A DNA stretch of 64,000 nucleotides. It comes from an uncultured Pseudomonadales bacterium. Its GTDB lineage: Bacteria; Patescibacteriota; Microgenomatia; UBA1400; UBA12028. The notes beneath the pieces were generated by a model. It was given only the letters and a program-made list of their open reading frames with translations. It ran no database searches and had not been told where the DNA came from. The stretch covers positions 167,671-231,670 of the forward strand of contig CAZDWN010000002.1 of the NCBI GenBank assembly GCA_964509365.1, in the 5' to 3' direction. A program made the translations under genes and the position numbers. Positions 28,752 through 50,100 of this stretch are shown here, one piece after another (position 1 is the stretch's first letter; each line of letters starts with the position of its first letter).

Positions 28752-28752
28752 T

Positions 28753-30906: not shown

Positions 30907-30910
30907 ATGA

Positions 30911-31432
30911 TTAATCCAGTCGTAAATCGGCTACTATTTCTACGTTGTTTCCTTCGACTTCTGCAGCGATATACCCTTTGTATTCTACTCCATTGATCTC
31001 GGCTGAAATATGATCGACCTGTTCACCATTTGAAGTTGGATCGTCAGTCATCACAATTTTCCACCCTTGAGCTTTGAGTTCCGTCTCGTACCAACGCATG
31101 ATCTTTGGCACCTCATCATGCGAGATCCATAATACACGATACCCTTGATCAGGCTCACCTTCTTTATTTACTTTTGATGAAGCTTCGAGAGTCGCACCTG
31201 GATAGACGGGAAACGATGGGAAGCCAGCGACGATTTCACCTTTGTATTCAGGGAAGCTTGGATCTGTAGCTACTTCTTTTTTCTCAGTGTTTGCAGGATC
31301 AGATTGGACTTCCTGGAAAGCAAATCGAGGGGACGTTCCTGATTGCATGCCGCGCTTGTACCACATTCCGCCTGCAACGGCAAGGATGACGACTGCAAGG
31401 ATGACGGTGAGTGTGAGGAGTTGTTTATTCAT
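30911..31432 (-). CDS. Hypothetical membrane-anchored protein
   Basis: 173 aa with an N-terminal TM helix. Confidence 0.4.
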   Translation of the reverse strand: MNKQLLTLTVILAVVILAVAGGMWYKRGMQSGTSPRFAFQEVQSDPANTEKKEVATDPSFPEYKGEIVAGFPSFPVYPGATLEASSKVNKEGEPDQGYRVLWISHDEVPKIMRWYETELKAQGWKIVMTDDPTSNGEQVDHISAEINGVEYKGYIAAEVEGNNVEIVADLRLD

Positions 31433-31435
31433 AGA

Positions 31436-33628
31436 TTAGTGACAGGGGATATTTGTTCCTTTATCAGTATAACTAGAACCAGCAATTGGTACAAACTCAA
31501 AGTCGTAGCTGGATGCATGCAATACGAGCTTGAGTACGCCATAGGTGGCATCATTCTTTGCGACACTGTTTGCTGCAGTCGTCACAAACTGGGTAAAGTT
31601 GCGACCGCCAGCGCCATTGACGATCTCCACTAGGCCATTGGCGTTGTCGACTGCTCCGCTCGCTGTCATGGGCGCGAATCGCTCGTAATTATGTTCGTGC
31701 CCTGCAAGAACCAATTCGCCATGTCCATCATAAAAGGCTTTGTACAATGGTGTTTTGTCTCCACCTTCATTTGCTCTACTTCCCGAAGTCCAAAGTGGAT
31801 GGTGCACCGTCATGATCGTACACATTTTTGGATTGGCAGCCATGTCGGCACGAAGCCACTGCTCTTGAGGACTGCCTGCGCCGCATCCGCCAGCAGTACT
31901 ACAGTTACTATTCATGTTGTACACGCGCCAACTTCCAATATTGACCGCATAGTACCCTTTGGATCGATCACCAGCGCGACCACTTTGGACGCCAACGCCG
32001 TTGAAATAATCATAATACCCAGATGCGCCAGAGGTAATGTACTCGTGATTGCCGACCGTCGGATAGGTAATACTCTTAAAACGACCCCAAGACTTGTCAT
32101 AAAAGTTCATGAAATCCGCATACGAACCGGACTCATATTGAGTGTCCCCAAGGACAAGCACTGCAGCCGGATTCATTGCCGCCGCGACATTTGCGGTCTC
32201 TTGTTGTTTACACGCTGCCCCTGTGCTTCCTGCGCCGCATACAATATCACCGACTGCTGCCACTACCGGATCCGTACCTGATACTGGTGGGATCGAGGAA
32301 ATTGGTGTGGCTGGAGGTTTAGAGGTTGGAGCCGGCGTCGTGCCACTGGAGCCAGAGCCAGTTTCAAGTGCAGGAAGATTTCGGTTCAAAATGTCGACGT
32401 ACAGATTCTTAAATTGATATCCGTTTGTTTTGAGTGTAGCCGTCCCACTCGTCGTTTGATTGACTTGGTCTGCAGGTTCGACACCAGATCCTTCGCCCCA
32501 CTCGTTCCATGTCTCCGTCAGCTTCCAGGTCACATTTGAAGAGACCATTGCTTTGACGCCAGCTTCAAATGAAGCAGGATCGCGAGGCAGTCGTTCTGCA
32601 GAATTATTGAGCCAAAAGCCAGGGGAGACAAAGTACCACCAGTTGCCTTTGGTGTTCGTACGAATTGCTGGAGCATACTCGTGCCAGCCATCCATCGCCA
32701 ATGGATCGGCGCCAGCGTTGAGTGGATCCGCCTTCATGACCACATAAAAGCCAGTTAGAGCGCGAGCTTGTGACCATCGTGAGAGGTCCTCGCTTGGATT
32801 TGAGCCGGAGTGTGCTGCGTTGTAGACAAACACGACAGGTTTCCCATTGATCTTAAGGTACCCTTTTTGAGTTGCGTAGTTTGATTTGATGTAGTTGAGA
32901 TCACCGACGATTTCGCTAAGTGGCGGATTGCCAAAGCCTTCCTTTTCGTAGTAAATTGCCCAACGTAGATTCGGATATGGGTTGTCGGCTCGATTCATGA
33001 CGTCAGTGATGATGTGTCGGAAAGCTCCGTTGGTCTTGTGTGTCTGTCCCCACCATGAGGAGATCGCAACTTCTTGCTTTGCTTCAGCGAGTTTACGGAG
33101 TTGCCAATAGATGATCGAGTCATTTGAAGAGCTATAGAGCTCGTTCGCAGGATCAAACTTGGTTGGCTCTGGATCAGGAAGATACTCAGAGAACCAGTTA
33201 CCCGGGACACCATGACCGAGATCATTCCACTGACTCCACGTCCCGTCAGTGTTTGGATTTTGATACCACGGATAAAAGAACGTTGCGTAATAGGGAGCAC
33301 TTGGTTGGAATCCCACAGTGCCTGGCAGATTTGTCGGCTGTGGCGTCACCGTAGGGAGTGCTGTGGGGTTTGGAGTAACCACAGCGGTAGGAGCCGGAGT
33401 AATGACTATTCCACCAAACTGCAAATATTGCCCGTTTGAGGCCGTAGAATCCGACAGGACTTGTACAGCTCCAATCGTGGCTGAGTTTTCCGCTTCAAGC
33501 GTCGTGTACTGAGCGGCTTTTGAAAAGAAATGGGTGACGCTATTCGCGACGAGCACACCGACGAGCAAAGTAATAAATAAGACGAGTACAAGGACAAAAG
33601 ACAGTAGGTTTGGTTTTTTATTCTCCAT
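31436..33628 (-). CDS. Membrane-anchored protein with a putative glycoside-hydrolase-like (GH99/endo-alpha-mannosidase-like) TIM-barrel domain and a C-terminal metallophosphatase
   Basis: TM anchor and a PT linker. YYATFFYPWYQNPNTDGTWSQW...SSWWGQ...WAIYYE resembles GH99-type motifs; that family assignment is tentative. The C-terminus carries VAAVGDIVCGAGS, VLGDTQYESG, TVGNHEY and AGHEHNYERF. Confidence 0.6.
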   Translation of the reverse strand: MENKKPNLLSFVLVLVLFITLLVGVLVANSVTHFFSKAAQYTTLEAENSATIGAVQVLSDSTASNGQYLQFGGIVITPAPTAVVTPNPTALPTVTPQPTNLPGTVGFQPSAPYYATFFYPWYQNPNTDGTWSQWNDLGHGVPGNWFSEYLPDPEPTKFDPANELYSSSNDSIIYWQLRKLAEAKQEVAISSWWGQTHKTNGAFRHIITDVMNRADNPYPNLRWAIYYEKEGFGNPPLSEIVGDLNYIKSNYATQKGYLKINGKPVVFVYNAAHSGSNPSEDLSRWSQARALTGFYVVMKADPLNAGADPLAMDGWHEYAPAIRTNTKGNWWYFVSPGFWLNNSAERLPRDPASFEAGVKAMVSSNVTWKLTETWNEWGEGSGVEPADQVNQTTSGTATLKTNGYQFKNLYVDILNRNLPALETGSGSSGTTPAPTSKPPATPISSIPPVSGTDPVVAAVGDIVCGAGSTGAACKQQETANVAAAMNPAAVLVLGDTQYESGSYADFMNFYDKSWGRFKSITYPTVGNHEYITSGASGYYDYFNGVGVQSGRAGDRSKGYYAVNIGSWRVYNMNSNCSTAGGCGAGSPQEQWLRADMAANPKMCTIMTVHHPLWTSGSRANEGGDKTPLYKAFYDGHGELVLAGHEHNYERFAPMTASGAVDNANGLVEIVNGAGGRNFTQFVTTAANSVAKNDATYGVLKLVLHASSYDFEFVPIAGSSYTDKGTNIPCH

Positions 33629-33672: not shown

Positions 33673-36600
33673 TTACTCTGGGGTCGTGAATTGGTGATTT
33701 GCATCATAGACATAGTTCTTCCCTTGACTCATCACTTCGTAGTTATACAGAGTTCCTGGAGTCAGGCCAGTAATTTCCACACGGTGCTCGTGTACTTTGT
33801 CTGTCGATTGGACGTCTTTGCCATAATCTGCGGTGGGACCATAACTCACTTTCGAAGTCGCTAAGTGATTGGTTTTCCAGGTAACGACCATGCTCGTCGG
33901 CGTCGATGTCTCGACGTGTAACTCTGAGATCTGTGTAGGGTTGCTGTCCATGACGATCTCGGTAAAGGAAGTTTTGGTGTATGCGATCCAATCGCCAAAT
34001 CGGGAAGCAAATTGTTTTGGTGCTTGCAGTGATCTTGCGATATCGACCATCCCTCGCTGGAGGATCGCAGCGATAAATTGTCCTGCAGAGCGGGAAAATC
34101 CGAAGATCCGCGAGAGTAAGTTCATTCCTTTTTGCACTGGTACGACTGCCTGAGTTGGCTTCATTGTTGGTCCAGGCGTCTGTTCTTTCGTGATCTCAAG
34201 TTCCGCTTGCACTTTCTGCTTTTCTACTGGCGGCAACTTCTCAGTTTCTTTCTCGATAATTGCTTGTTCTTCAGGCGTTGCGACTTGAGAGATTCCTGCC
34301 ACGGTAAAATTCACGCTGAGGCTTCCTTCATTGTCCACTTGGTCACTGCCAGTCAAGGTGAGCCTGAAACTTCCAAGAGGCAGCTTCGCGCTTGGAGTAA
34401 ATTCAAATGGAGAGTACTTATTACTTTGATTGAGGGAAGTGTCAACAATCATACTTCCGGTATCTTCCCAATAATTGAGATTGAGTGCGATCGTCGTCAA
34501 ACTGTACAGCTCATACACGCCGAAACTATTTTTCTTTTCTACTCTTGCCACCACATTGCGTAGTCCAGATGCCACCCGAGATGCCACAGAGTCGCCATTG
34601 AGACGGTCAGTACTTTTCCCGAAGAACGTCGGAGTCCGATCAGTGGTCGAAAAGAGATATTGCGAGGATTGCACGTGAATATCATTGAGTTGCGAGAGCG
34701 TCACATCTGGAGCACTTGTATCGACAAAGACTGTCGCTGCCGCAGTTCGAGTGTTCCCGACGTTGTCATAGGCGACAACTTTCCAATCTCTGCTTCCTTC
34801 TTTGAGTTCGCCACCATTCTTGTCGCTTCCCCAACTCGCAGACGATTTTGTCTGGACGGAGACAAAGTTATTCGTAGGATCGCTGTCAGCAAACCCATCA
34901 AAATGGATGCGATATGTTTCATTTTCGACATCAGCGGTACCGGTCACTGGAATGTTATCGATTGAGAAGCTTCCAGTAGATCCGTTTGAGACTTCCAACC
35001 GAAAATGGCTCAAGCCACTACCAGCATCTGCATTTGCTGGCACATTCCATTGGTAGGTAGGGCGTGATGATTGAATGTACGAATGATCACTCGGATTCTT
35101 GATCGAGAAATTGAGTGGAGCAGTCGTATCGTAGATAATACTCGCGGAGTAGATGCCAGACTCGACATTGCTAGGATTTTTATAGCGGACATAGACAGTT
35201 TTGGAACCGTCGACGGTTGGACTTGCCAGTGTCCATGATTTTGAGCTAGCAAAACTCTCGTAGGACGCGCCACTCAAATCACTGTTGTTCGATATCTTCA
35301 TCGAGAGCAGATTTGAAGCATACACTCCATCACTTGCACTAAGCGTCAATGTTACTGAAGATGAATTCGTCGAAGATGCACCTCCATTGATCGTAATTGA
35401 ACCAGACGGTGTGGACGTCGAGATGGAATGAGAGCCATTGCTCGAATAGCTGGAATCATTGCCAGCTACGTCCGTCGCCTTGACTCTGAAATACCACGTT
35501 CCGTCGATGAGCGGCGTGCTATGCGTGTATGAAGTCGTCGCCGATGTTGCGCTCGATACGCCACTCAAAAACGCAGCATCTTGTGACCATTGCAATGTAT
35601 ATGGAGTACCAGTGAGTCCGCTCGAAGCATCTGATGACGCAGACCAGGTCCACGTAGGTGTTGTCAAACTCGCTGGACTCGCAGAAGTGGGAGTCCCTGG
35701 CGTCGCAGGAGCCGTGCCATCAAAATAGTATGGTCCAAGATTCACTGTCCCATTTGCGACGTCGGCGCTGTTGTAGCCTTTTACATGCAAGTACCAAGAG
35801 TTGGAATCAGATGTGGCTGTTTTTGCCAACGTGGATGAGCTCCACTGGGTTTCTGTGTCATTAAATGTATGAGTTGACGTTGTATCCCAGACGTAGCGGA
35901 AATATTGGACGGAACCTGCTCCAAATCCTAGTGTATTCGTAAACGTAAACGTCGAAGTATTTGTCCATGTCGAGGTCGCGACAGGATTCGTGACATTTCC
36001 TGAGGTTGGTGCCGTAGAGAGTGTCACTGCACTCGCGTTTGACGATGCGATACTATCTCCTGCGGCGTTTGATGCCACAACTTTCCTGGTGTAACTCGTA
36101 TTCGGTGACAATCCCGATTCTGTGCACGTAACGGTTCCACCGGTCCCCGATGAAGGTGACGCAACGGTGCATTGCGTCGTGCCACCAGTCGTCAAGACGC
36201 GGAAACCAGTTTCGTTGGAGGCATTATCGGTAAAGCTCCATGTGATCGAGGTGGTGCTGGCGGCACTTCCTGACAACGTAGATGGGGCAGACGGGACTGC
36301 TAGCGTCGTAAAGCTACGCGGAGTTTGCGTCCCGCCAAACGTATTTGACCCGCCTGGATCGATCGCGTAACTTCGCCAATAATAGGTAGTGCCATATGCG
36401 AGTGCAGATTGCACCGTGTATGTAGCTTGTGTACCGCTCGTGTAGGCTGTGCTTGTTTGCGTATTTTGACCCGACCAGCCTGTCTGACTGCTCGTTTGAT
36501 CAAAAGTCTGGCAGCCCACACTCATGCCCACATTGGTGCACAGTTCAATTTTATAGCGCAAATAATCTGATTCGGTGTCCGTTCCCGTCGTAAGAAGTGA

Positions 36601-38562
36601 GGGAGTGACGGACTGCCCAGTTGCAGCATCTGCCGGACTATCGAGCGAAGGAGTCGGTGGCGTCGCATTGATTTTCCAGGCAGCATATCGGTAGGTAGTA
36701 GCATTAATGTTGGTTTCAGATTGGCTTCCGCCAACTGAAAATCCGTTGCTCAAGAAAGCGGTCAATCGATCCGTTTGGACTGCGGTCGCGACAAAGAAAA
36801 GCGTCGAGTTACCGACTAGAGTGCTTGGTCGGAATACCGCATTGAATCCACCAGTTGACTTGTTCCACAGCAAATCTGGAGAAAATCCGATGGCAGTAAT
36901 ATTCTGAGCACTCCCTGTCCCACTATAATGGTTGACATAAAACGTTGAACTAGTCTTGAAAGAAAAGAAATTGAAGACCGTGACGGTACCGCCGTTGACA
37001 CGAGTACTTGTCCCGACTTGGAATCCATCGGAGTTAAATCCCTGGATATTGTCAGTGCTCTCCGCGACTCCGCTAAATCCCATGGAGGCATCACCCGTCT
37101 CGTCTGAGGTGCGCCACATTCCTGATGCAGCTGAGTTTGGTTTGATTGCAACTAAGTCAGGCTGAAATGGCATGCGAGAAATATTTCGATTGTCGATCGC
37201 GGCCCCAGTATACGCACCCACCATAAAGTCAGCGGCGCCTGTATTCTTTTCGGGATTAAATGCATTTCCAAATGCCTGATAGTGATATACCGTTGCATTC
37301 GTGTTGACCGTGGCATCTGCACCGACACTAAAACCCGTGCTATCCAAGGAAGTAATTCCCCCGGTAAAATTGGCAGAGGTATTTGCAAGATAGGAAGTAC
37401 TATCCCCTTTCATCATGCTTGTGCGAAATACACTCTGTGTCGCTGCGGCTGCGTCTTTGATCATCACGACATCGGGAGTGAATCCAAATCCAGACAACGA
37501 CTGTGACGTCCCATTTCCCGTATAGGTCCCAACCTTCATTTTATATGTGCCAGATCCAGAAGGATTGCTTGCGCCTCCAAACGCCGCCCAGTAGAGAGTT
37601 TTCCCACTCTCATTCGCCGCGACATCTGTACCGACGGTAAATCCGTTTGTATCCAATGATTTGATTTGACCAATTGCGTTGTTACTATCACTAAACGCTC
37701 CACTGTAATCACCAAATGTTTCAGTCAAGTTAAATTCAGCTCGCACCGGTGTCGTTGCATTCGCGTTCTTGAGCCAAACGAGGTTTGGTTTATAGCCCGG
37801 GGCGGTAATCGCTTTGTTGTCGAGCCCGTCACCAGTAAATGTGCCGACACTAAATGCATTACTGGTCGATTTAAAGGCGAAGAACCAGTAGTTGGTACTA
37901 CTAGAGTTGACTCGAGTCGCTGGGCCGACCGTAAAACCGGTACTATCAAGTGTTTTAAATACGCTCCCGTCAGAAACTTCATTCGCAGCGCTAAATGATT
38001 GCGAGTCATTGGTAGGCATGCTTGAAGTCATGTACGCGGCCGTCGTGGCTCCAGATCCTTTGATCACCACCATATTTGGAGTAAACCCAGTGCTCGTCAA
38101 CGCATGTGTCGATGCAGCATCTCCGGTATAGCTGCCGACGCAAAACGTCCCACTGGACGTACAGTCTGAGCCACGAAATGCGACCCAAGTAAATCTGACA
38201 TTCGCACCGTTGACATCGGCGTTAGTGCCCAGGGTGAAGCCATCACTATCGAGTGATTGGATGGCATCAGTTCCGATATCGGCCGTCGCATCAGCGAGAA
38301 GTGCGGACGTCTCTCCTGACATGGCTGATGACTTCCAGACTGAACCGAGTGATCCGTTTCCACTGTCATCCTTGATGATGATCAACTGTGGTTGAAATCC
38401 GACACCAGTAATGGCGCGATTATCGACGCCATCGCCCATGTAGTAGCCGGTTTGCATTTGAAAAGTCGCCGCAAACGCTTGATGACTCGTGAGCGCCAGT
38501 AAAAACAACACGCTGAGGAACGTAGCTATTTTTTTGACGATGAATGGAGCGTGAAGTCGCAT
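33673..38562 (-). CDS. Giant secreted surface protein (1629 aa) with six repeated beta modules, FN3 and Ig-like domains and a C-terminal PAP-N-like FN3 domain
   Basis: Signal peptide. Modules recur with the motif G[FY]xP[NDQ]LV.IK. FN3 modules are present (SAPSTLSGSAASTTSITWSFTDNASNETGFRV). The C-terminus LHVETSTPTSMVVTWKTNHLATSKVSYGPTADYG...GLTPGTLYNYEV resembles the N-terminal domain of purple acid phosphatases. Confidence 0.7.
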   Translation of the reverse strand: MRLHAPFIVKKIATFLSVLFLLALTSHQAFAATFQMQTGYYMGDGVDNRAITGVGFQPQLIIIKDDSGNGSLGSVWKSSAMSGETSALLADATADIGTDAIQSLDSDGFTLGTNADVNGANVRFTWVAFRGSDCTSSGTFCVGSYTGDAASTHALTSTGFTPNMVVIKGSGATTAAYMTSSMPTNDSQSFSAANEVSDGSVFKTLDSTGFTVGPATRVNSSSTNYWFFAFKSTSNAFSVGTFTGDGLDNKAITAPGYKPNLVWLKNANATTPVRAEFNLTETFGDYSGAFSDSNNAIGQIKSLDTNGFTVGTDVAANESGKTLYWAAFGGASNPSGSGTYKMKVGTYTGNGTSQSLSGFGFTPDVVMIKDAAAATQSVFRTSMMKGDSTSYLANTSANFTGGITSLDSTGFSVGADATVNTNATVYHYQAFGNAFNPEKNTGAADFMVGAYTGAAIDNRNISRMPFQPDLVAIKPNSAASGMWRTSDETGDASMGFSGVAESTDNIQGFNSDGFQVGTSTRVNGGTVTVFNFFSFKTSSTFYVNHYSGTGSAQNITAIGFSPDLLWNKSTGGFNAVFRPSTLVGNSTLFFVATAVQTDRLTAFLSNGFSVGGSQSETNINATTYRYAAWKINATPPTPSLDSPADAATGQSVTPSLLTTGTDTESDYLRYKIELCTNVGMSVGCQTFDQTSSQTGWSGQNTQTSTAYTSGTQATYTVQSALAYGTTYYWRSYAIDPGGSNTFGGTQTPRSFTTLAVPSAPSTLSGSAASTTSITWSFTDNASNETGFRVLTTGGTTQCTVASPSSGTGGTVTCTESGLSPNTSYTRKVVASNAAGDSIASSNASAVTLSTAPTSGNVTNPVATSTWTNTSTFTFTNTLGFGAGSVQYFRYVWDTTSTHTFNDTETQWSSSTLAKTATSDSNSWYLHVKGYNSADVANGTVNLGPYYFDGTAPATPGTPTSASPASLTTPTWTWSASSDASSGLTGTPYTLQWSQDAAFLSGVSSATSATTSYTHSTPLIDGTWYFRVKATDVAGNDSSYSSNGSHSISTSTPSGSITINGGASSTNSSSVTLTLSASDGVYASNLLSMKISNNSDLSGASYESFASSKSWTLASPTVDGSKTVYVRYKNPSNVESGIYSASIIYDTTAPLNFSIKNPSDHSYIQSSRPTYQWNVPANADAGSGLSHFRLEVSNGSTGSFSIDNIPVTGTADVENETYRIHFDGFADSDPTNNFVSVQTKSSASWGSDKNGGELKEGSRDWKVVAYDNVGNTRTAAATVFVDTSAPDVTLSQLNDIHVQSSQYLFSTTDRTPTFFGKSTDRLNGDSVASRVASGLRNVVARVEKKNSFGVYELYSLTTIALNLNYWEDTGSMIVDTSLNQSNKYSPFEFTPSAKLPLGSFRLTLTGSDQVDNEGSLSVNFTVAGISQVATPEEQAIIEKETEKLPPVEKQKVQAELEITKEQTPGPTMKPTQAVVPVQKGMNLLSRIFGFSRSAGQFIAAILQRGMVDIARSLQAPKQFASRFGDWIAYTKTSFTEIVMDSNPTQISELHVETSTPTSMVVTWKTNHLATSKVSYGPTADYGKDVQSTDKVHEHRVEITGLTPGTLYNYEVMSQGKNYVYDANHQFTTPE

Positions 38563-38572
38563 AGGAATGTCT

Positions 38573-39040
38573 TTACTGAACGATTACCGTTCCCTTCAAT
38601 CCTGGATGCAGGGTGTCTTCATAGGTATAGGAACCTACTTTATTAAAAATAATTTGTCCGGATTTTTTTGGAGTGATTGGAATGGTCTGCGCACCACCAG
38701 TGACTGAAATTTGATGCTTCGCTGTATCGTCATTGGTCCAGAGGATGGTGGTGCCCTTCTTGATTGACACGGGGTCAGGAGAAAAGCCAGTAGATTTGAT
38801 AGACACTTTTACATCATCCAAATATACTTCACCATGAGCAATCTCTTCTGCAGTTGGCTGATCTTCATTTTCTGCGCTTTCATCTTCTTCAAGCAGTTTG
38901 TTAACATTTTCTTTTTTGTCTGCAGGAGCGTCTTTTTGGAAAAACAATTGATATTTACTGCTGAGCTCTGTTTTTGCGAAGATCACACCGGCGCCAATTA
39001 CTATTGCGATACAGATTATAATTGGCGCCGTCTTTTTCAT
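38573..39040 (-). CDS. Small membrane-anchored cupredoxin-like protein (Cupredoxin_1-like, with no Cys ligand)
   Basis: TM helix, acidic linker, then TGFSPDPVSIKKGTTILWTNDDTAKHQI...GSYTYEDTLHPGLKGTVIVQ. This matches the cupredoxin-like pattern (FSP..[IL]T[IV]K.G...W.N.D...H...Y.[FY].C..HP.MKG.I.V), but Asp sits where the Cys ligand would be. Confidence 0.45.
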   Translation of the reverse strand: MKKTAPIIICIAIVIGAGVIFAKTELSSKYQLFFQKDAPADKKENVNKLLEEDESAENEDQPTAEEIAHGEVYLDDVKVSIKSTGFSPDPVSIKKGTTILWTNDDTAKHQISVTGGAQTIPITPKKSGQIIFNKVGSYTYEDTLHPGLKGTVIVQ

Positions 39041-39044
39041 CGTA

Positions 39045-42000
39045 TTAAGGGCCTACGCTCACATTCTGAGCGATGGCGTCATCAAATAAGATATCAAATG
39101 TTCTTCCAGTATTTACTTCACCGAGCACTAGACGACCTACATTCGTCGTTCCGAGATCATCGGAGGTGCTTGAGAACGTCGTGTCCAGCGTGCCGTCGTA
39201 CCAGACTTCATGCGTGCTTGAGGTACCGTTGATAATGCTGTGGAGTTCGACACTGTGCCAAGCATTTTGCGTTGGGACGGTCGTACTACACGTATTCGTC
39301 GCGGTCTTTTCATTGCGCAGACAGAGTTTGTTGGTAGTGCCATCGATATACACTTTGATGAGAGCTACATCACTACTATCTCGCATCGATACCAGTCCGA
39401 CACCAGATCCGACTGCTTGCGACTTCATGTTGAAGTATGTTCGCAGATACACATTTGGCTGCGAGGTCGACAACGTCTTACGCAAGTTCGTTGCAGCACT
39501 TGTCGTATTTCCCTCTGCGGCATAGGTGCCAGCGTGGACAGTCGTCGTCTGTGACGAGAAGTTGTTATTCGTCGTCCAGTAACTCAATGATCCTGACTCA
39601 AAATCTTCGCTCAAGATTAGCAGTGGCAACGCATAGTTTTGCGTTGTCGTATTGCCAGATGTCACCGTGACAGAGGCTAATTGAGTCGTGTACCCAGTTT
39701 TGCTTGCCGTTACCGTATACGTGCCTGATGCTACACCAGAGAGCGTATAGACACCTGATCCATTCGTGGTTGCAGAGCCTCCAGAGTAGGATACAGTGAC
39801 TCCACTGACTGCTGCAGACGTACCCGCGTCAGTTACTGTTCCCGTGATCGTACCGATATTGGATCCAGTCAACGCGATGTTGACTGTCGACGTACTGCCA
39901 GCGTAGACCGTGGCACTACCCGTGTTGTTCGTGTAATTGGTCTTACTCGCCGTCACAGTATAGGTTCCAGGAGCGACGTCGCTGAGCGTGTACACTCCAC
40001 TCCCATCAGCAGTGGTACTCCCACTACTGATACTGACTCCAGCTCCGCCGAGGGTCGCTGAGGATTGTGCATCAGTGATTGTTCCCGTGATCGTTCCTCC
40101 TGCACTTCCCACTCTGACATTTTGGACAACGACATCATCAAAGATGACATCGTAGGTTCGACCAGTTGTGGTCTCACCGAGATAGATTCTTCCAGTGTTG
40201 TTTGTCCCAAGATTTGCACTGCTACTCGTAAGAGTGGCAATGGATGTTCCATCGAGCCAAACTTCATGGGCACTTGCAGATGAACCATTGACGAAGACGT
40301 GCATCTCAATACTGTGCCAAGTGTTCGCCGTTGGTACCGTTGTCGAACACGTGCTTACTGCCGTAATATCATTTCTCATACAGAGCTTATTCGTTGTCCC
40401 ATCGATATAGACCTTGAACATTGCTCCGTCCGCAGCTGTTCGAGTCGCGATCAGTGAGACATTTGAGCCCGACGCCTGAGAAACAAGCTTATAATACGCT
40501 CGGTAATACACGTCGGCATACGATGATGCAAACGTTTTCTTTGCGTTCACGGCTACAGATCCAGTGGTACTTCCTTCTGCACTATACGTTCCGTAATGAA
40601 CGTTTGAAGTTTGCGCTGACATGCTTGCAGTTGAAGTCCAAGCGGTCATATTTCCTGTTTCGAAATCATCCGCAAATATTCGCAGAGGTAACGCGAAGTT
40701 TTGTGTGGTCGCAGTGGCCGCAGTGACGGTGACACTCGCTGCTTTGGTCGTATACCCCGTCTTTGATGCCGTTACGTCATAAGTGCCTGGTGTGACTCCG
40801 GTAATGGTATAGACACCTGACCCATTGGTCGTCGTGCTGCCACCTGAGTATGAGACAGTCACTCCACTGACCGCTGCAGAGGTGCCAGCATCAGTGACCG
40901 TGCCTGTGATATTTCCAGTGGTTGGAGCCAGTGAAAAGTTTTGAGTGACGGTTCCAGTCGTATTCATTGAGACATTTGGGTTCTGCGTCGTATACCCGGT
41001 CTTACTCGCAGTCACGGCAACGGTGCCTACCGGGACATTCACGAGAGTGTATGTTCCTGCGGCACTGGTGGTCGTACTTGATCCTGAGTAGGAGACAGTC
41101 ACACCACTGACATTTGCAGTTGAGAGCGAGTCAGTGACGGTCCCGGTGATCGACCCGACGGCTACACCTGACTGAGCATTTGCAAGGATGACATCATCGA
41201 AGACGACATCAAACGTGCGGCCAGAGTTCGATTCTCCCAAGAGAATTCTTCCGACATTGTTGGTACCCAGACTATCACTCGTACTCGTGAGTGAGGAGAC
41301 CGCAGTACCGTCATACCAGACTTCACGTGTACTTGAGGTACCATTGATGATGGTATGGAGTTCGACACTGTGCCAAGCATTTTGCGTTGGGACGGTCGTG
41401 CTGCACGTGTTCGTCAACGAGATTTCATTGCGATAACACAGTTTTCCTGTCGGTCCATCGATATACACTTTGTTGATTGCCGCATCAGCCGATGTGCGCA
41501 TAGCGAGCAGTCCCATACCTGATGCTGTTGACTGAGACTTCGTATAGAAATAAGTACGATAGTACAGATTGGAATATGTACTTGCCAACGTCTTTCGTAA
41601 GTTAGCAGTCGCACTTGCCACATTTCCTTCTGCAGCTTGCGTTCCAAGATTGTACGTAGTGCCCTGGACCGTTATCGCGCTACCAGTGTTGGTCGTCCAT
41701 GCACTCGTATTTCCTGATTCAAAATCATCACTGAAGATGACTGCTGGCATTGCAAAGTTTTGAGTAACGACACTTCCAGTGGTCGTCGCCACATTTGCAG
41801 ACTTTGTCTCATACCCAGACTTGCTGACAGAGATTGCCGCTGTACCAGTACCGAGACCGACAATCGCATAGTTTCCGCTTGCATCGGTCGTCGTAGATCC
41901 GCCTGGATAGGTGACTGTGGCTCCATTGACTGGACTTGTGGTCCCAGCATCAGTGACCGTACCGGTGATTGATGCATTGTTTACCAATGAGGCATTTTGA

Positions 42001-43754
42001 GTTGTCGTACTTGCTCCCCCGACAGAGACGTTGAGATTTTGAGTGATGTACGTCCCATTGCTGATGGTGACCGTGTAGTCAACCGCTGGGATATTGGTAA
42101 ACGAGTAATTTCCGCTTCCATCGGTTGTCGTACTTCCTGTCAACGCATTCCCAGTCGTTGAAGTCCCCGTGTACGATACAGTCGCTCCTGCAATTGCTGA
42201 GGACGTACCTGCATCCGTAACGGTTCCAGACATACTTCCGGCACCCTGACACGGGACGCTTCCGGAATCGAAGAGTGAACCATTGTTGATGGTGTAGAAC
42301 TCGTAGTTTGCCTTGTTTTTGGTAAACGTGAGTTTCATCGCACCGTAATCTGTCGATCCACCAAGTGAGGCCAAGACATTGGAGTCACTAGTGATGATAT
42401 TGGTTGACCCGTGACCACCAGTGCCTACCAAGAGCTCTGCTACTCCTGAGGCTGTTGCTGTTCCTGGTGACGAAAGTCCGATATTTTTCCAACTTTGGTA
42501 CGAGTGATCGTGACCGAAGAGAAAGAGAGATCCTTTGTTGTTTACCATTGAGTCCCACACTTCATTTTGAGCCGTGTCAGATCCATGTGATCCGATACTC
42601 CAGCGTGGATGATGGGCATACGCGACGATACATTTGTTTGCATTGGCGGCAAGGTCAGCATCGAGCCACGTCTGTTGTGTCGTTTTTCCACCATTGATTG
42701 TATAGGAGGTATTAGTTGAGGGAATTGACGTCCAAGCATCTTTCAATGTCAGCGTAGTTGCCGTATTACTAGCAATATAGTGAGTTTCACCACCTGAGGT
42801 CACGGTCTGGTTCACCCACTGATTAATGCGCCAGTTTTTACCTGAGTCAGTCAATATACCGACGCCACTCACACCACCATTACTAAACGTTGAGTTTGAA
42901 CTGGTGGTTGTTTGAATTTTTGAGTAGTTTGTATTCAAGGCAATGAAGTGCCATCCACCTGCGTCGTAACTATAGTAGTTTGGAATGTTATTCCAATACC
43001 ACATGTAGCCTGTAGCAGAAGTATCAGCGAGGTATTCGTGATTACCGACTACTGGGTTGGTTTTATTAGCAAACTGCCCGAATTGGACATCATAGCGGTT
43101 TCGAAATTCTTCGTAGCCACCTTCGTAGTACACATCTCCCAGATACAAAGCCATATCTGGATTCCAACCGTTCATCATATTTGAAACGGTGACGTTGTTT
43201 GTCTCATCACTACTTCCGTCTCCGACGACGGCGACGACCATATTTCCTGAAGGATTTGGTGTTGTCGGGCTAAACGTATTTGAATTCACGGGAGCTGAAG
43301 AAACGCTATTACTCAAAGTAATGGTTTGGGTTGCAGGCGTGGAGTATGAGTCTCCTCCAGCAGTGGTAATCAAGGCTTTGACACTGAGTGTCCCGTTGGT
43401 AGTGTCCACATAATGACTGGTGTGCCAAGTGAAACCTGTGGAGACACCTGAAGTGAGCTTGAAGTTACTCGCAAGGTAGACTTCAGAGCCTCCGTTCGGA
43501 GTATAGGTGAAGTACAATTGTTTGAGAGCTGCACCGTTGCGTAGAGTCAAAGAGTTGTAACTTCCAGTGACGGAAGTATCTCCGGTCAATGTGGCCGGAT
43601 TTGAAGAGGGAGCATCCAAACATACAGTGACATCGTAGTATGTTACGTCGTTAGTGGTGACACATGTCGAGGCGAATGCGTCTTTTGGAAAGAACAGAGC
43701 CAAGGCGAACACGAGTACAAGAGCACACAGGGAGGATTGAATGTGTTTCAGCAT
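39045..43754 (-). CDS. Giant secreted protein (1569 aa): N-terminal metallophosphatase, then three [CarboxypepD_reg-like beta-sandwich + ~190-aa LamG/ConA-like] repeat units
   Basis: Signal peptide, then the motifs VVAVVGDGSSDE, LYLGDVYYEGG, VVGNHEY and FGHDHSYQ. CarbopepD_reg-like modules (GTVTDAGTSAAVSGVTVSYSGGSTTTNGSGVYT) are present. Three LamG-like units begin [IF][FA][SA][DE]DFE[ST]G... and end ...G.TNN[VT]GR[IL].LGE...GRT[FY]D[VI].FDD. Confidence 0.7.
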   Translation of the reverse strand: MLKHIQSSLCALVLVFALALFFPKDAFASTCVTTNDVTYYDVTVCLDAPSSNPATLTGDTSVTGSYNSLTLRNGAALKQLYFTYTPNGGSEVYLASNFKLTSGVSTGFTWHTSHYVDTTNGTLSVKALITTAGGDSYSTPATQTITLSNSVSSAPVNSNTFSPTTPNPSGNMVVAVVGDGSSDETNNVTVSNMMNGWNPDMALYLGDVYYEGGYEEFRNRYDVQFGQFANKTNPVVGNHEYLADTSATGYMWYWNNIPNYYSYDAGGWHFIALNTNYSKIQTTTSSNSTFSNGGVSGVGILTDSGKNWRINQWVNQTVTSGGETHYIASNTATTLTLKDAWTSIPSTNTSYTINGGKTTQQTWLDADLAANANKCIVAYAHHPRWSIGSHGSDTAQNEVWDSMVNNKGSLFLFGHDHSYQSWKNIGLSSPGTATASGVAELLVGTGGHGSTNIITSDSNVLASLGGSTDYGAMKLTFTKNKANYEFYTINNGSLFDSGSVPCQGAGSMSGTVTDAGTSSAIAGATVSYTGTSTTGNALTGSTTTDGSGNYSFTNIPAVDYTVTISNGTYITQNLNVSVGGASTTTQNASLVNNASITGTVTDAGTTSPVNGATVTYPGGSTTTDASGNYAIVGLGTGTAAISVSKSGYETKSANVATTTGSVVTQNFAMPAVIFSDDFESGNTSAWTTNTGSAITVQGTTYNLGTQAAEGNVASATANLRKTLASTYSNLYYRTYFYTKSQSTASGMGLLAMRTSADAAINKVYIDGPTGKLCYRNEISLTNTCSTTVPTQNAWHSVELHTIINGTSSTREVWYDGTAVSSLTSTSDSLGTNNVGRILLGESNSGRTFDVVFDDVILANAQSGVAVGSITGTVTDSLSTANVSGVTVSYSGSSTTTSAAGTYTLVNVPVGTVAVTASKTGYTTQNPNVSMNTTGTVTQNFSLAPTTGNITGTVTDAGTSAAVSGVTVSYSGGSTTTNGSGVYTITGVTPGTYDVTASKTGYTTKAASVTVTAATATTQNFALPLRIFADDFETGNMTAWTSTASMSAQTSNVHYGTYSAEGSTTGSVAVNAKKTFASSYADVYYRAYYKLVSQASGSNVSLIATRTAADGAMFKVYIDGTTNKLCMRNDITAVSTCSTTVPTANTWHSIEMHVFVNGSSASAHEVWLDGTSIATLTSSSANLGTNNTGRIYLGETTTGRTYDVIFDDVVVQNVRVGSAGGTITGTITDAQSSATLGGAGVSISSGSTTADGSGVYTLSDVAPGTYTVTASKTNYTNNTGSATVYAGSTSTVNIALTGSNIGTITGTVTDAGTSAAVSGVTVSYSGGSATTNGSGVYTLSGVASGTYTVTASKTGYTTQLASVTVTSGNTTTQNYALPLLILSEDFESGSLSYWTTNNNFSSQTTTVHAGTYAAEGNTTSAATNLRKTLSTSQPNVYLRTYFNMKSQAVGSGVGLVSMRDSSDVALIKVYIDGTTNKLCLRNEKTATNTCSTTVPTQNAWHSVELHSIINGTSSTHEVWYDGTLDTTFSSTSDDLGTTNVGRLVLGEVNTGRTFDILFDDAIAQNVSVGP
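39047..41789 (-). repeat. Three intragenic ~1 kb duplications (about 41204-41789, 40304-40874 and 39047-39644) with long near-identical DNA stretches
   Basis: ttcgacactgtgccaagcattttgcgttgggacggtcgt occurs identically at about 41356 and about 39253; a diverged copy lies near 40300. Confidence 0.55.
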
Positions 43755-43811
43755 ACTCTCAGTATTTCGAATTTGAGAGTGAGAGTCAATAAGGAATTGT
43801 GAGGCCTATCA

Positions 43812-44195
43812 CTACTTGACTATGATTGTCCCCACATTTTGTGGCAACATTTGGTTGTGATAAGTGTACTTGCCTGCTTTGGTGAAGACATGGATTAGTG
43901 TTTGATTGGGAGCGAATCGTCCAAGGTTGAGTTCTGGATATTTTCTGTTGGCTGGGTAATCGTCCGAGTTGACTGACGCGGGGACGAGGCTAGCGTTTTT
44001 AAATCGCACTGCTTGCCCGGGTTTGATCGTCAGCTCTTGAGGACTAAAACCGCTTGACGTCAGTGTCACGGTATTTTCAGTTATGGGAGCTGCAGGATTC
44101 CCAGAAGACTGTCGTCGGTATTTGCCTTCAAATAAGAGAAAGCCAAAAAGGATGATCAATCCGCCGACGATATACATTTGCATTTTAGTGGTCAT
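43812..44195 (-). CDS. Second small membrane-anchored degenerate cupredoxin-like protein (start MTTKMQ at 44195; the ATG overlaps the TGA of the upstream giant gene as ATGA)
   Basis: GAGGAG SD 6 nt upstream, a TM helix, then SGFSPQELTIKPGQAVRFKNAS...GKYTYHNQMLPQNVGTIIVK. It is paralogous to 38573-39040 but lacks both the Cys and His ligands. Confidence 0.45.
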   Translation of the reverse strand: MTTKMQMYIVGGLIILFGFLLFEGKYRRQSSGNPAAPITENTVTLTSSGFSPQELTIKPGQAVRFKNASLVPASVNSDDYPANRKYPELNLGRFAPNQTLIHVFTKAGKYTYHNQMLPQNVGTIIVK

Positions 44196-47100
44196 TTTCT
44201 TCTCCTCACGGTGCTGGCAAGCGACTTTTGCTGCCAGAGATAATACTTCGTTTTTCGATATGGCACAAACCCAGTTCGCATGACAAAGGTACCAGACCAG
44301 TTTCCCGGTGCGCAATTGTTTTTCGCTCTGACTTTAAAGGTATAGTACGTGAATGGGCGGAGTGCTCCAATCTGGATGGGGACAGCGCCACTCGAAGAGG
44401 TGATTGGGAAGTTATATGCATAGTAGTCATCATGCCAGTTGACTCCATAGGAGACGACAAATGAGGTATACGGTCGTGTCGGAGGTGCCATATACAACGT
44501 CGCAGTTGTTGCACTTGCGTCAATTTGATAGATCACTGGCGCTCCCAATGGTGGCATATCGACACAAGTCGTTTCCGCGATCGACGTGGAACTCCCTGAT
44601 CCACTATCGGAGAGCAGGTTCTGTGTCGATACAAGAGTAAAGAGAGAGAACTGCGAGATGCTGCAAGTGATCTGGAACGCATCAAGGGAGTTGGAGCAGT
44701 TTGCTTGTGACCAGGCTCCGTTATGGTACTGCATGACCGCGATACTGGATCGATTGATCCGATTCAATTCGCTTTCACTATAGGCAATCGTCATCGAGAT
44801 CGGTTGATCAAAATCCGTGATCGTGTCAGTGATCGACGAAAATGCTTTGACGTCATACGTGTGATTGCCAATCGTGTTGTATCCATTTGGGAGGAATAGT
44901 CCTTGCAATGCAATTGATGAATCGAGCTGGTGAATTTGAAAGACTGCTGAGTGCGTACTGTACCCGATCGGCACATACAGTCTCATTCCATGACCATTCG
45001 CGTCAAAGCCATCCACGATTCCTCCTGAACTGAAGGCGACTTGTCCATCAGACTCTTTGAGGACTCCTGAATTTCCGCTACAGCCTTGCGACGTAAAGAT
45101 TTGATCGTCGCTGACGGCACTATCGCCTACATCATTGAGTGATTTGATTTGGACATGATAGGTCGAGCAATTGACGAGTCCGCTCAACGTGACCGAGTGA
45201 TTGGTTACCCCATCCAAATCTGCAGATGAGTTCGCAGTGTAAAAACTCGTGAGTCCGTACGAGAGCTCAGAGTCAGCCAGCAAATTCGTCGTCCACGTCA
45301 GGATTGCTCCAGTCGAGGTGGGAGTGATCGAAAGATCTGAGATCGTCAAATTCCCTGAGGGAGTTGGAGAAGAGGTCGCAATCATTCCAAAATTGACAGA
45401 GGTGTTTGTGGTGACTGACACATCTACTAGATTTGGCGTCGTCCCTGTATATCCATTGGGGAGCGTGTACGCCACTGTATACGTTCCTTGGTTGAGTGAC
45501 GAGAATGTGTAATTCCCACTAGAGTCCGTCGTCGTGGAGCTATTGCTGCTCCCAGATAATGAGATGAGTTGATTTGCGTATCCAGTCTCAGCATTGTCTT
45601 GCACGCCGTTTTGATTGGTATCGATATAGAGCGTACCAGTCAATGAGAATGTTGGACTTGGCGTCGGCGTTGGGGAGGTGTTGACGCCAGTCCCTTCTGG
45701 AAGATCTGGTAAGTACGTGTGGAGCACATCGATGTAATTTTCTTCAAACAGCGATCCATTTGGGTTGACTGTCGCTGAAGCAGTGCTATTTGCTTGAGAT
45801 ACTTCGACACCAGGCTCTACAGATGATCCTTCTCCCCATTCGTTCCAGGTCTCGACGAGCTTCCAAGTGGCGTTGGAAGCGACCATACTTTGAGCCGCTG
45901 TCGAGAATGCCGATAAATCGCGAGGCAGTCTGACAATATCGCCTGTGAGCCAGAACCCTGGCGAGATCATGTATGCATACGCTCCTTGACTGTCGGTACG
46001 GACTGCAGGCGCATACTGATGCCAAGAATCGGGCTGGCAAGCGTCCGTCGTATATCCTCCAAATACTTTCAACACGACGTAAAACGGCGTGACCGCAGCA
46101 TCATTAGCCTGTTTCCAACGAGCCGTCATGGTCGAATCGTTACAGTTGGTATTTGAAGTCCCTCCATCAGTTGGTGTCGCATAGACAAAGATAACTGGCT
46201 TGTTATTGATGCGCAGATACGATGATTGATTTGCATAGTTTGAAGCAATGTAATTGAGGTCGGATGTCAGTTGGCTGACACTTGGGTTGGTCGTCCCATT
46301 ACACGTTCCCCCTTCACACTCGTAGTACATCGCCCAGCGCAAATTCGGATACGGATTATCAGGTCGTGACATAAAATCGGTCAACTGGTGAGACAGGGCG
46401 ACATCCGATCGATCCCCTTGGCCCCACCAGGAAGCGATCGCGACTTCTTGCTTTGCGTGCGCCATTTTTGTGAGCTGCCATTTGAAGATGTTGTAGTCAT
46501 TTGAGCTATACAGCGACGTCGATGGAGTAAACGTATCGACCACTGGCTGCGGCAAATAGTTTGAGTACCAGTTAGCAGGTGGCACATGAGTGCCATTTGC
46601 ATCTGGATCAGCCCAAATTCCCCACTGATTCGAACCATCGGTATTCGGGTTCTTGTACCAGTTATAAAAGAACGTCGCGTAGTAGGGAGCGGCTGGCTGG
46701 AAAGCCGTGTCGACTGTTTTGATTCCGAAGTTTACCGTACTGTCATTGGTGAATGTCGCGGTAACCGGATCAGCTGTCGTAGCTGTATATCCGGCTGCAA
46801 GTCTTGCGGTGACAGAGTAACTACCTGAAGTCAAATTACTAAACGTGTAAATACCAAAGGAGTCGGTGGTCGAGGATGACGATCCGGTGCCAGACAATTT
46901 GACAGTCACACCTGCCTGCCCTGCTTCATTGAGGTCTTGCACTCCGTCGTGATTCGAGTCGAGATAGACGGTACCTGTGATCGATACTGGCACCGCTGGA
47001 GTCGGTGTCGGAGTCGGGCTCGGAGTCGGCGTGGCTGCAGCAGTCAAGAAATGACAGTCGGCGGAACCACTCTCAGTAAAAGTGCCGTTGGTAAAGTTTT

Positions 47101-50100
47101 GAGTACTAGCCGATGGGACAAATTCATAGTCAAAGCTAGATTGATGCAACGTCATCTTGAGGACGCCAAACGTAGTCGCGTCAAAGACAGCACTATTCAC
47201 GTCGAGACCATTTGAAGACAGTTGTGTGTGATTACGTCCGCCAGTCCCGACGACAAACTCAGTGATTCCATTGGTGTTATCGACAAATCCACTGTTGTTC
47301 GTAGGATAAAATCGCTCGTAATTGTGATCGTGCCCGACGAGGAACACATCAGCATGCGCTGCATAGAGATCGCCGTAGAGATTGTCCACACCAGCGTTGT
47401 GAGGTTGCTGACCTGAGGAGTAGCGAGGATGATGCGCATAGGCGAGGAGACACTTTCCAGCGTTCGCCGCTAGATCAGCCTTGAGCCACACATCTTGAGG
47501 CGAACCATTGTCACACCCACCAGCCTGCGAACAATTGGTGTTGAGAGCCATCAAGTGCCAATTGCCAATATTGTAGCTATAGTAGCCAAGCGATCTGTTC
47601 CCAGCATTGCCAGATTGGATCCCAACTCCATTGAAATAGTCGAAGTACCCTGCAGCTGATGTCGTTAGGTACTCGTGGTTTCCCACCGATGGAGCTGTTA
47701 TCGATTTAAACAGCCCCCAAGTCGGATCATAATGCGTTTGAAAATCAGCGAGTGAACCGTCTTCATATTGATTGTCTCCGAGTGGAAGTACTGCACTCGG
47801 ATTGATATCCGCTATCGTATCTGAAGTTGCTGTTTCCTGGCATGACGCACTGGTACTTCCAGCTCCGCAGGCAATGTCTCCTGCGGCGGCGATCACTGGA
47901 TCGCCAAACAAGTCAGAGAAGTCCTCAGTCCCGACGTCAGCAGCGTGCCCCAGCAGCGGAGTGAGTCCAAAAATATTTTGAATGGTCTTGACGTACGAAC
48001 TGTGAGAGTAGGTGCGACTGTTTGAATAGCCGTGCCCTTTGGTTTGCGGTGATATCGCGATCATGCCTATCGGACGATTCGTCGTGCTTCCGCTGTCTTC
48101 ATCCCACATAACAAAGATCGCAGCATGCCCCGCCTGATAGGTTGCTGAATTCAAGATTGTCGGCAAATTTGTCGAGAGCCACGTGTCGGCGTTTTTTATT
48201 TTGTCTTCGCCACCTGGACAACCTGCGTCGTGCCCATCATTACAGGTATTTGGAGTGATGAAGTTATAGTCAGCTACCCCATTGCCTGTACCAGCGAGGT
48301 CCGAGGAAAGCTGAGTAAAGTCAAACTCGTGAGCGATACAATACGTAGAGCTTGCATTTGGTGTCCCTATTCCGCCAGGAGCCAACAGTGATGAGACATC
48401 TTGGAAGAATACAAACGGACTGTGGCGAGGGATAAAGCGTGTCCCATTTCCGATTGGACAACCTGACGGTTTGTTTTCCTGATAGGCCCTCCAGACTTTC
48501 CCGGCGGTATTGAGTTGCGTAGCCAAATGAGCTGAGGACGTCGTCGACGACGACGTTGGCGTGTCGTCCACAGTAAACGTAATATCAGAAAAGATATTTG
48601 TCCCAGCTTCCATCCAGATATAATTAGGCTCAGATGGATGCAAGTATCCTGAGAGGGTTTCACTCGGCAGCACACTTCGATAATTTTGAGCGTACACGAC
48701 ATTGGAATGCACCGCATTCAAAGAGCCATCTGTATTCACACCACTGACGAGGCTATTGAGGTACGGGGCTGAAGTGGTATTGCCAATGACGTTAGCGCCA
48801 TCTTCGTTTTCAAGCACAATCGTGAATACTTTCGTGATGTTGGCTGAGAATGAGTACGGTACCACTGGTACTGGCGTCGGGACTGGTGTGGGCACCGGCG
48901 TCGGAGTTACGATGGTCGAGTTCTGGACCTGCAAGTCATCAAATGAGACACTGACAGGCATATTCGTCACTGCACCAAGTCGTCCAAGCAGTCCAATCGA
49001 GCCCGCTTGTTGCAAGATCGTAGCCGAATCTGTCGTCGTATAGTGCCAGGAGCTTGGTTCCGTATTCCCATCCAGCCACGCTCTGGCATTGATGGTCGTC
49101 GGTGCACCTCCTTGCAGTTGCACATGGACGTCCAGCCACGACCCAACCGTGTAGGTGAGCCCCGCGACTTGCGTCTCCGTCCCGAGCCCAGTCTCAGCGT
49201 TTGTGAGTATTTTTGAAGAACGTAAAAACACGTGACCTGATGGATCCACTCGTACCCATCCTCGATACTCATTGCCGCTCGAGACATGCCGTCCGATGAG
49301 GTAGACATAATTTCCAGTCGATACGTCTGGTAATTTGTCATATTTAATTTTGACCGTGTAGTCGACGTTTTGGGCACTCACATTATCAAGTCGCACTGTA
49401 CGCTGATTGGCACTTCCAGTGGCCGTCAGGACGATGGTCCCTTGTGCCCCATCGACCAAGAATGCACTTGCTGAACCTACTTGGGTATAGGAACCTCCAG
49501 TGTCTGCACTTCCCCATCCATTCGCGATGATGCGAGTAAATGTATCCATTGCAACTGTTGACGTCGTTGATTGTTGGATACCGACATTGCTCACCGTATT
49601 TGTCGAGAGTGGCACAGTGACCGGATTAGTCGTCGTCGAAAGGTACCCATTTGGGAGCGTGATTGTCTCGGTATACGTCCCCGCAGGTAGCGTCGCAAAT
49701 GTATAGTCACCGGTAGCATCGGTCGTCGTGGACGCAGACGTCGTTCCGGTAATCGAGACGGTAACGCCTTGATATCCACTTTCTGAGATGTCCTGCACGC
49801 CATTGCCATCCAAGTCCACGTACACTTTTCCACTCAGAGAATACGTTGGCGCCGCAGTTGGCGTCGGTGTCGGAGCGATCGTATCAGCGGTGAGTGAAGC
49901 GTACGTAAACAGGATTGGGGCGTTATTCACGGCTGCAGGAAGAGAGGATCGTACACCGACCGCACCTGGAGCCTGAAGACCAGATTCGGAGTCTGTCCCA
50001 GTAAAAGTCCAGCTCCCTGGCTCAGCATCACCATCTTTCCAAAGCTTCAAATTCATGGTTGTCGGATTGATCCCAGTGACCTGTGAGCGGATCCAGTAAT

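Follow-up and report, generated by a model that had tools for sequence, protein, structure and literature searches.

Ultrasmall episymbiotic bacteria rely on large surface proteins, whose retention at the cell and assembly there are poorly understood. A 64,000-nucleotide (nt) stretch of contig CAZDWN010000002.1 (positions 167,671 to 231,670), from the genome of an uncultured member of the Patescibacteriota, raises this question in a particular form. On the minus strand of this stretch (hereafter the window, whose coordinates are used throughout) a row of ten co-directional genes runs from 51340 to 26032 in the list of open reading frames (ORFs). Two of its very large products, giant1 and giant2, are each encoded directly ahead of a small protein (small1 and small2, respectively) that combines an N-terminal hydrophobic helix with a cupredoxin-like domain. 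Are these small proteins electron carriers, metal-binding proteins of another kind, or partners of the giants that they follow? Judged from sequences and predicted structures, they belong to a clade of membrane-tethered cupredoxins without copper; in one lineage of this clade the small gene is locked to that of a giant surface protein.

A sequence-only reading of the locus had proposed that the two largest giants are each followed by a small gene, in the order giant3, small2, giant2, small1, giant1 along the plus-strand coordinates. The order and the adjacency were confirmed from the sequence. The size ranking was not, as giant2 is only the third largest protein of the row, after giant3 (1629 amino acids (aa)).

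Cupredoxin domains without the copper cysteine

Both small proteins had been proposed to carry a Cupredoxin_1-like domain, and a search with the Pfam profile (PF13473) scored small2 at 38.7 bits and small1 at 35.1, each above the gathering score of 27. Structure prediction agrees with this assignment. AlphaFold2 (AF2) models small1 as a helix (aa 3-25) and a nine-strand sandwich, with a mean predicted local distance difference test (pLDDT) score of 80. The small2 sandwich reaches a pLDDT of ~96 and the linker preceding it stays below 50; the cupredoxin domains of the two proteins score about 90-97. The best Foldseek matches of both were amicyanin, plastocyanin and a Nitrosopumilus cupredoxin (E about 1e-8, template modelling (TM) score to target 0.69-0.79), and small2 finds amicyanin from its sequence at E 7.6e-8. 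Amicyanin and plastocyanin are thus the best matches in sequence and in fold (E 1e-7 to 1e-10, TM 0.7-0.79), sharing with small1 and small2 the Greek-key sandwich and the positions of the ligand loops. The N-terminal hydrophobic segment of each small protein may stay in place as a signal anchor or be cleaved off as a signal peptide.

Alignments to amicyanin and plastocyanin were used to read the four copper-ligand positions (His/Cys/His/Met). In small2 these are H109/D142/H145/L148, such that both His are kept, Cys is replaced by Asp and Met by Leu. The corresponding positions of small1 are A73/N114/L117/N120 and none of the four ligands is kept, Asn standing in place of Cys and both His being absent. 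The axial Met is therefore missing from both proteins, and their soluble domains contain no Cys at all. These alignments bear out the earlier claim that the copper Cys has been lost, with His retained in small2 and neither residue in small1. Furthermore, the type-1 copper Cys is absent throughout both families, that of small1 and that of small2.

These observations bear directly on the possibility that small1 and small2 are electron carriers of the plastocyanin or amicyanin type. The product name 'plastocyanin' is attached to two of the related proteins by the Joint Genome Institute (P0002 and P0062), and papers on the Candidate Phyla Radiation (CPR) assign to single-domain cupredoxins the role of electron donor to NirK (PMC5581439, PMC12931201). 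Nevertheless, we give this reading next to no credence: besides the family-wide absence of the Cys ligand, scores against the NCBIfam amicyanin and plastocyanin equivalogs (TIGR02656/TIGR02657) are 18-28 bits, far under the cut-offs of 87.9 and 110.2, and the scanned ORFs of the window included no NirK or respiratory partner. Unlike amicyanin and plastocyanin, small1 and small2 carry a membrane helix at the N-terminus and have no redox partner nearby. Small1 and small2 cannot be blue-copper electron carriers, and the database label 'plastocyanin' is wrong for them. The earlier description of the fold as redox-inactive is safe as far as blue-copper chemistry is concerned, and unproven for small2, which keeps His/Asp/His. 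Since a whole clade lacks the copper Cys, inferring an electron carrier from a CPR cupredoxin requires a check of the ligand residues.

The small proteins had also been called paralogous. Homology between them is clear (27% identity, BLASTP E 4e-8; hhalign probability 99.1% for the two family profiles), but a local duplication is not borne out. Their sequences place them as distant homologues in different subfamilies of one Cys-less clade, not as recent paralogs, and intermediates join the two subfamilies (P0190, with the motif YHDE, and P0196, with YHDH). An exhaustive HMMER search yielded 7373 relatives of the small2 domain, the majority of them true copper proteins, and many with 3-10 tandem cupredoxin domains in which Cys..His..Met is intact. 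The complete architecture of small2 (transmembrane helix, acidic linker, YGETYLDD motif, Cys-less domain) was found in only two other proteins across two very large protein sets (P0062 and P0105), with 40-49% identity in the cupredoxin domain. The closest relatives of the small2 domain (P0014, P0017, P0022 and others) include proteins 500-1150 aa long in which as many as 10 cupredoxin domains stand in tandem; in P0014, the single multi-domain sequence that was read, the repeats keep the copper ligands, and some proteins of this kind carry Big_2, cadherin-like or fn3 domains as fusions.

The small1 family comprises 45 distinct proteins in the loci fetched, and a scan of a genome collection with the family alignment returned 4 loci only. 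The majority of members carry SVNSD-HPTH..P-LNLG and YTYHNH, giving four conserved His of which none is a type-1 ligand. In the subclade of the window these motifs read SVNSDDYPTN and YTYHNQ, and 3 of the 4 His are gone, two from the loop (compared with HPTH) and the third from HNQ (compared with H-N-H). Within a 12-sequence alignment (A2) the loop residues V75, N76, S77, D78, D79, Y80, P81 and N83 are invariant and S74 is near-invariant; position 82 is Ala in small1 and Thr in most sequences. A copy 97% identical to small1 (L011) differs from it by 48 synonymous and 9 non-synonymous changes, corresponding to a ratio of non-synonymous to synonymous substitution rates (dN/dS) of 0.033, and thus small1 is under strong purifying selection and is not decaying. 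For the evolution of the fold, the series leads from a His/Cys/His/Met site to a Cys-less form with four other His and on to a form with one His. The metal sites decay step by step, the last form remains under strong purifying selection, and the family clearly shows a redox fold put to another use.

Genomic neighbours of the two subfamilies

The giant2-small2 pair was compared in three genomes including that of the window, the other two each supplying one small2 orthologue. In one (locus L053), a 1580-aa protein with 59% identity to giant2 along its entire length is followed after 2 nt by the small2 orthologue; here the giant3 orthologue lies upstream of the giant2 gene, and behind the small gene comes the ATP synthase operon. 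In the other (L054-L057), the small2 orthologue lies 32 nt after a protein 79% identical to giant2; a 196-aa protein comes next, and the giant1 orthologue after it. Giant2 and small2 are therefore adjacent in all three genomes, while giant3, giant1 and the ATP synthase operon take differing positions relative to them. Because the pair is kept amid rearranged surroundings, we consider it conserved: small2 is a lineage-restricted accessory gene, co-inherited with giant2 as a unit. Within this unit small2 changes 2-4 times faster than its partner (dN 0.67-0.72 for small2 vs 0.19-0.35 for giant2).

The sequence-only reading had taken the ATGA overlap at 44192-44195 and the 4-nt spacing at 39041-39044 to imply co-translation. 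Both features are present in the sequence, but they do not support the implication. Gaps of ≤4 nt separate 17 of the 38 same-strand ORF pairs of the window, gaps within the ten-gene row span -10 to 57 nt, and the giant2-small2 spacer is not conserved between the orthologous pairs described above. Because such spacing is the norm in the window, the overlap and the spacer are uninformative, and tight spacing was rejected as a special signal.

Members of the widespread small1 family occur in several contexts. Most frequent is a site with rmuC directly upstream and/or a gene for a ~960-aa UvrD/PD-(D/E)XK helicase directly downstream (25/45), which sits in a longer block, VanW-DUF192-TsaD-RmuC-cup-UvrD. 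Three of the 45 come immediately after an SdrD_B protein (the window type, L007 and L013), one is divergent from such a protein, and the context of the remaining 16 is of another kind or unresolved. Conserved adjacency to giant genes in relatives therefore stands for small2 and giant2, and falls as a trait of the small1 family. The placement of a gene for an extracytoplasmic protein at the rmuC/uvrD site is odd; loci with members of this wider family include L001, L003, L004, L014, L015, L020, L022 and L026, with the small gene at ~10000 in each.

The three small1-type genes found behind SdrD_B proteins form one clade in a neighbour-joining tree, computed without bootstrap support. In L007 the small gene overlaps the gene of a 382-aa SdrD_B protein by 14 nt, and in L013 it starts 12 nt after the gene of a 996-aa SdrD_B protein; since the downstream gene lies on the opposite strand in both, the link is to the upstream gene. 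The upstream partners in the window, L007 and L013 are non-orthologous and have SdrD_B repeats alone in common. One subclade of the small1 family appears to have relocated, its members now coming right after SdrD_B surface proteins. A third Cys-less type, P0190, is encoded 14 nt after a 767-aa Big_7/fn3 protein with a weak C-terminal match to CarbopepD_reg_2. When the sampled loci were searched with an SdrD_B-like hidden Markov model, 8 of 675 ORFs matched, and each of these eight either adjoins a small cupredoxin gene or is one gene away from one. With 4 independent partner types, these counts give a rough estimate of p about 3e-4. Within the window, among the large surface proteins, only the two above the Pfam cut-off for transthyretin-like repeats have a cupredoxin gene directly behind them.

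It is possible, though on balance we think it unlikely, that no specific pairing lies behind these patterns. Small1 and small2 would then be autonomous envelope proteins that bind a generic ligand (a cell-wall component, a lipid or a metal ion), and their adjacency to giants would reflect genome compaction and descent. Such an explanation fits the predominance of the rmuC/uvrD site and the existence of another clade between genes for fructose-bisphosphate (FBP) aldolase and a DUF3105 protein, the conserved small1 motif, which is identical in every context, the general tightness of gene spacing and the 32-nt spacer in one giant2-small2 pair. It is at odds with the persistence of that pair in 3/3 genomes despite shuffled surroundings, with the recurrence of a Cys-less cupredoxin gene, at ≤14 nt or overlapping, behind three more non-orthologous repeat proteins, and with the confinement of SdrD_B-like ORFs of the sampled loci to the vicinity of small cupredoxin genes.

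The clade beside FBP aldolase has features of its own. Its members (L024 6296-7332; L029 8045-9041; L038 9851-10844; L033 2-394 and the following gene) have a Cys after small residues in the N-terminal region, consistent with a putative lipoprotein signal. In L024 and L029 the small1-family gene lies between class-II FBP aldolase and the DUF3105 protein (Pfam), with gaps of -1 and 19 nt; in L038 and L033 a similar-sized gene lies downstream of it, at -14 and 7 nt. This arrangement may constitute a second conserved small-gene pair.

A possible tethered binding module or metal site

The co-inheritance of small2 with giant2, together with the loss of the Cys, suggests a non-redox role as a helper or tether. 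Our preferred, still tentative, proposal is that small1 and small2 may assist secreted repeat proteins as membrane-tethered accessory proteins whose beta-sandwich has a non-redox role. The N-terminal helix would hold the small protein in the membrane, followed by a flexible linker (acidic and disordered in small2), and the beta-sandwich would serve as an extracytoplasmic binding module without redox function. This module would bind or tether, or help to assemble, a secreted protein with CarboxypepD_reg/SdrD_B (transthyretin-like) repeats at the cell surface, the partner being made from the same transcript. We infer both the physical interaction and the role in tethering or assembly. For surface biology, giant2-small2 offers a concrete pair that bears on how large surface proteins are retained or assembled.

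Copper-less, anchored cupredoxin folds are known elsewhere, and plant early-nodulin-like phytocyanins are grouped in this respect with the receptor-binding domain of the ephrins. The latter provides the closest analogy in possible working, being a copper-less anchored cupredoxin fold that acts as a protein-binding surface module; ephrins go back to monodomain cupredoxins and, with the copper site lost and a membrane anchor acquired, they are now protein ligands (PMC6485061). They differ from small1 and small2 in being eukaryotic, in having a C-terminal or glycosylphosphatidylinositol anchor and in showing no detectable specific kinship to the window proteins, for which binding is what we infer. 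CupA of Streptococcus pneumoniae also has a single N-terminal membrane helix and an extracytoplasmic-type cupredoxin fold that is not for electron transfer; it uses Cys and Met to bind Cu(I), and its gene shares the cop operon with those of CopA and CopY. Unlike CupA, small1 and small2 have soluble domains without Cys, and their neighbours are surface enzymes, with no CopA or CopY.

Several points weigh against an accessory role. The invariant loop (VNSDDYP, N83) is alike in small1 members beside giants and in those at rmuC/uvrD, and such independence of context means that the small1 ligand may be generic and not partner-specific; the 25 family members at the latter site have no giant neighbour. 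The partners are non-orthologous and the repeat type that they share is common among such surface proteins, and the giants' own N-terminal hydrophobic segments could already anchor them. In these lineages gene order can persist without a functional link, of which the rmuC-cup-uvrD block may be an example. Finally, the sample behind the small2 orthologues consists of three genomes only.

We consider it improbable that the domains bind metal in a non-classical manner, small2 through His109/Asp142/His145 and the ancestral small1 family through its four His (HPTH and HNH), acting as an extracytoplasmic metal chaperone or buffer or as an unusual copper centre; one such role would be to load the metallophosphoesterase domains of neighbouring enzymes, which occur in giant1, giant2 and most of the row. 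There are precedents for metal binding by related domains. The His/Asp/His/Leu set of small2 is that of the azurin variant C112D/M121L, which binds Cu(II) (PDB 3FPY, cited in PMC8915257) and is termed 'type zero copper' (reference 43 of PMC11966278). FtrB of the FtrABCD iron transporter is a natural cupredoxin without the His-His-Cys set, for which a non-classical site that can bind Cu2+ has been proposed (PMC11966278). An uncharacterised Bacillus anthracis protein of the same Pfam family as small1 and small2 (PDB 4hcf, 4hcg, 4hci; TM 0.68-0.76, about 17-23% identity) has been crystallised with Cu and with Zn (4hcf, 4hcg).

The ligand positions of the small2 orthologues nevertheless speak against a shared metal site: they are H/S/E/M in P0062 and H/D/D/V in P0105, so that the first His alone is invariant. 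Because these positions differ among orthologues, a conserved metal site in the small2 lineage appears unlikely. The azurin variant is engineered and small2 is natural, and since the same four residues are not conserved in the small2 orthologues, we regard the match as a curiosity. The small1 subclade of the window, for its part, lacks three of the four family His. FtrB is a periplasmic protein of Gram-negative bacteria encoded with a permease, a context that the row of small1 and small2 does not offer: no Ftr/Efe genes and no Ftr1-like permease (EfeU/FtrC) were found among the row proteins (Pfam) or in the scanned flanks. Given the variable ligands of the orthologues and the partners in L007, L013 and L060, which have no metallophosphoesterase domain, a metallochaperone for phosphoesterase domains is unlikely.

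Searches of the available literature found no description of a pairing between a Cys-less cupredoxin and a giant surface protein. It would be a long shot, in our view, to extend the accessory role to an undescribed class of Cys-less tethered cupredoxins, dedicated as extracytoplasmic anchors or assembly factors to giant transthyretin-repeat surface proteins in ultrasmall Patescibacteria, in a step comparable to that from cupredoxin to ephrin, or else to see in small2 a natural 'type zero' copper site.

The gene row and its surroundings

The coordinates of the row and of the elements within it are collected in Table 1.

Table 1. Features of the ten-gene row, in order along the minus strand (window coordinates).
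Feature	Position	Strand	Description	Basis
giant1	44192..51340	-	2382 aa; secreted multidomain protein: 3 SdrD_B, CarboxypepD_reg, GH99-like, metallophosphoesterase-like region, C-terminal fn3-like	ORF, Pfam
ATGA stop/start overlap giant1/small1	44192..44195	-		sequence
small1	43812..44195	-	127 aa; N-terminal helix and Cys-less cupredoxin domain	
small1 N-terminal hydrophobic helix	44121..44189	-	aa 3-25	AF2 secondary structure, sequence
small1 cupredoxin beta-sandwich	43815..44078	-	aa 40-127	Pfam, AF2, Foldseek
small1 loop motif SVNSDDYPAN	43947..43976	-	aa 74-83	alignments
small1 H113-N114-Q115	43851..43859	-	Asn at copper-Cys position	alignments
small1-giant2 gap	43755..43811	-	57 nt; promoter-like site TTGACT-17-AATACT (consensus match only) and 7-nt inverted repeat	
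giant2	39045..43754	-	1569 aa; signal peptide, metallophosphoesterase domain, 6 CarboxypepD_reg, three ~350-aa repeat copies without Pfam assignment	ORF, Pfam
Spacer giant2 TAA to small2 ATG	39041..39044	-	4 nt, 'tacg'	sequence
small2	38573..39040	-	155 aa; ATG at 39040	
small2 N-terminal helix	38969-39028	-	aa 5-24	AF2
small2 disordered acidic linker	38834-38968	-	aa 25-69 (~45 residues)	AF2
small2 Cys-less cupredoxin domain	38576-38833	-	aa 70-155	Pfam, AF2, Foldseek
small2 H109	38714-38716	-	first His ligand position	alignments, codons
small2 D142...H145...L148	38597..38617	-	Cys, His and Met ligand positions	alignments, codons
giant3	33673..38562	-	1629 aa; DUF7483, fn3, Pur_ac_phosph_N	
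Rest of row	26032..33628	-	730 aa (GH99 + metallophosphoesterase), 173 aa (transmembrane), 717 aa and 750 aa (metallophosphoesterase + CBM96), 158 aa (transmembrane)	

For small1 we take the ATG at 44195 as the start: GAGGAG, a Shine-Dalgarno-like sequence, lies a few bases 5' of it, an identical 127-aa product is present in the databases, and homologues begin at the same Met. The end at 44315 given for this region in the sequence-only reading is merely the first TTG of a mechanical ORF. Giant3 begins with an ATG at 38562, 10 nt after the small2 stop, and the gaps in the remainder of the row are 3, 4, 1 and -10 nt.

The candidate promoter in the 57-nt gap may give giant2-small2-giant3 a transcription start of their own; in a promoter and terminator scan of the window, counts were not above those for shuffled sequence. 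The inverted repeat of this gap (ACTCTCA...TGAGAGT) stands immediately 5' of the giant2 ATG.

The large proteins of the row have signal-like N-terminal segments, and their Pfam domains are SdrD_B, CarboxypepD_reg, metallophosphoesterase, GH99-like, CBM96, fn3 and DUF7483. The metallophosphoesterase-like region of giant1 (1180-1430) matches the giant2 orthologue, and the ~350-aa repeat unit of giant2 is possibly lectin-like. The 173-aa protein (30911-31432, minus strand) and the 158-aa protein (26032-26508, minus strand), each with an N-terminal transmembrane segment, are encoded directly 3' of large secreted phosphoesterases, at gaps of 3 and -10 nt, so that the arrangement of a large secreted enzyme followed by a small transmembrane protein occurs four times in the row. 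Neither is a further cupredoxin, as there was no Pfam or NCBIfam match and the hhalign probability was <9%.

Upstream of giant1 lies a gene for a 235-aa transmembrane protein (51401-52108, minus strand), and the 196-aa protein directly upstream of the giant1 orthologue (L054 3108-3698; L054/L055) is a clearly similar counterpart, as judged by eye and unscored. This is one more adjacency of a small and a giant gene that is kept across genomes.

The flanks of the row hold housekeeping genes, including the ATP synthase operon, SecA, seryl- and lysyl-tRNA synthetases and GreA; searches of the window for tRNA and for rRNA/Rfam families gave no match. At 54633-56252 on the minus strand, a flavin adenine dinucleotide-dependent oxidoreductase (DAO) with a C-terminal Rieske domain appears as two ORFs (55731-56252 and 54633-55718), perhaps through a frameshift or because the mechanical ORF list misplaces a start codon. 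One of the related loci comes from a genome titled Candidatus Woesebacteria, which points to a probable source of the window within the Patescibacteria/CPR. Two records with the CPR-type block (L012, L014) are titled 'uncultured Gammaproteobacteria bacterium', probably a mislabelled source.

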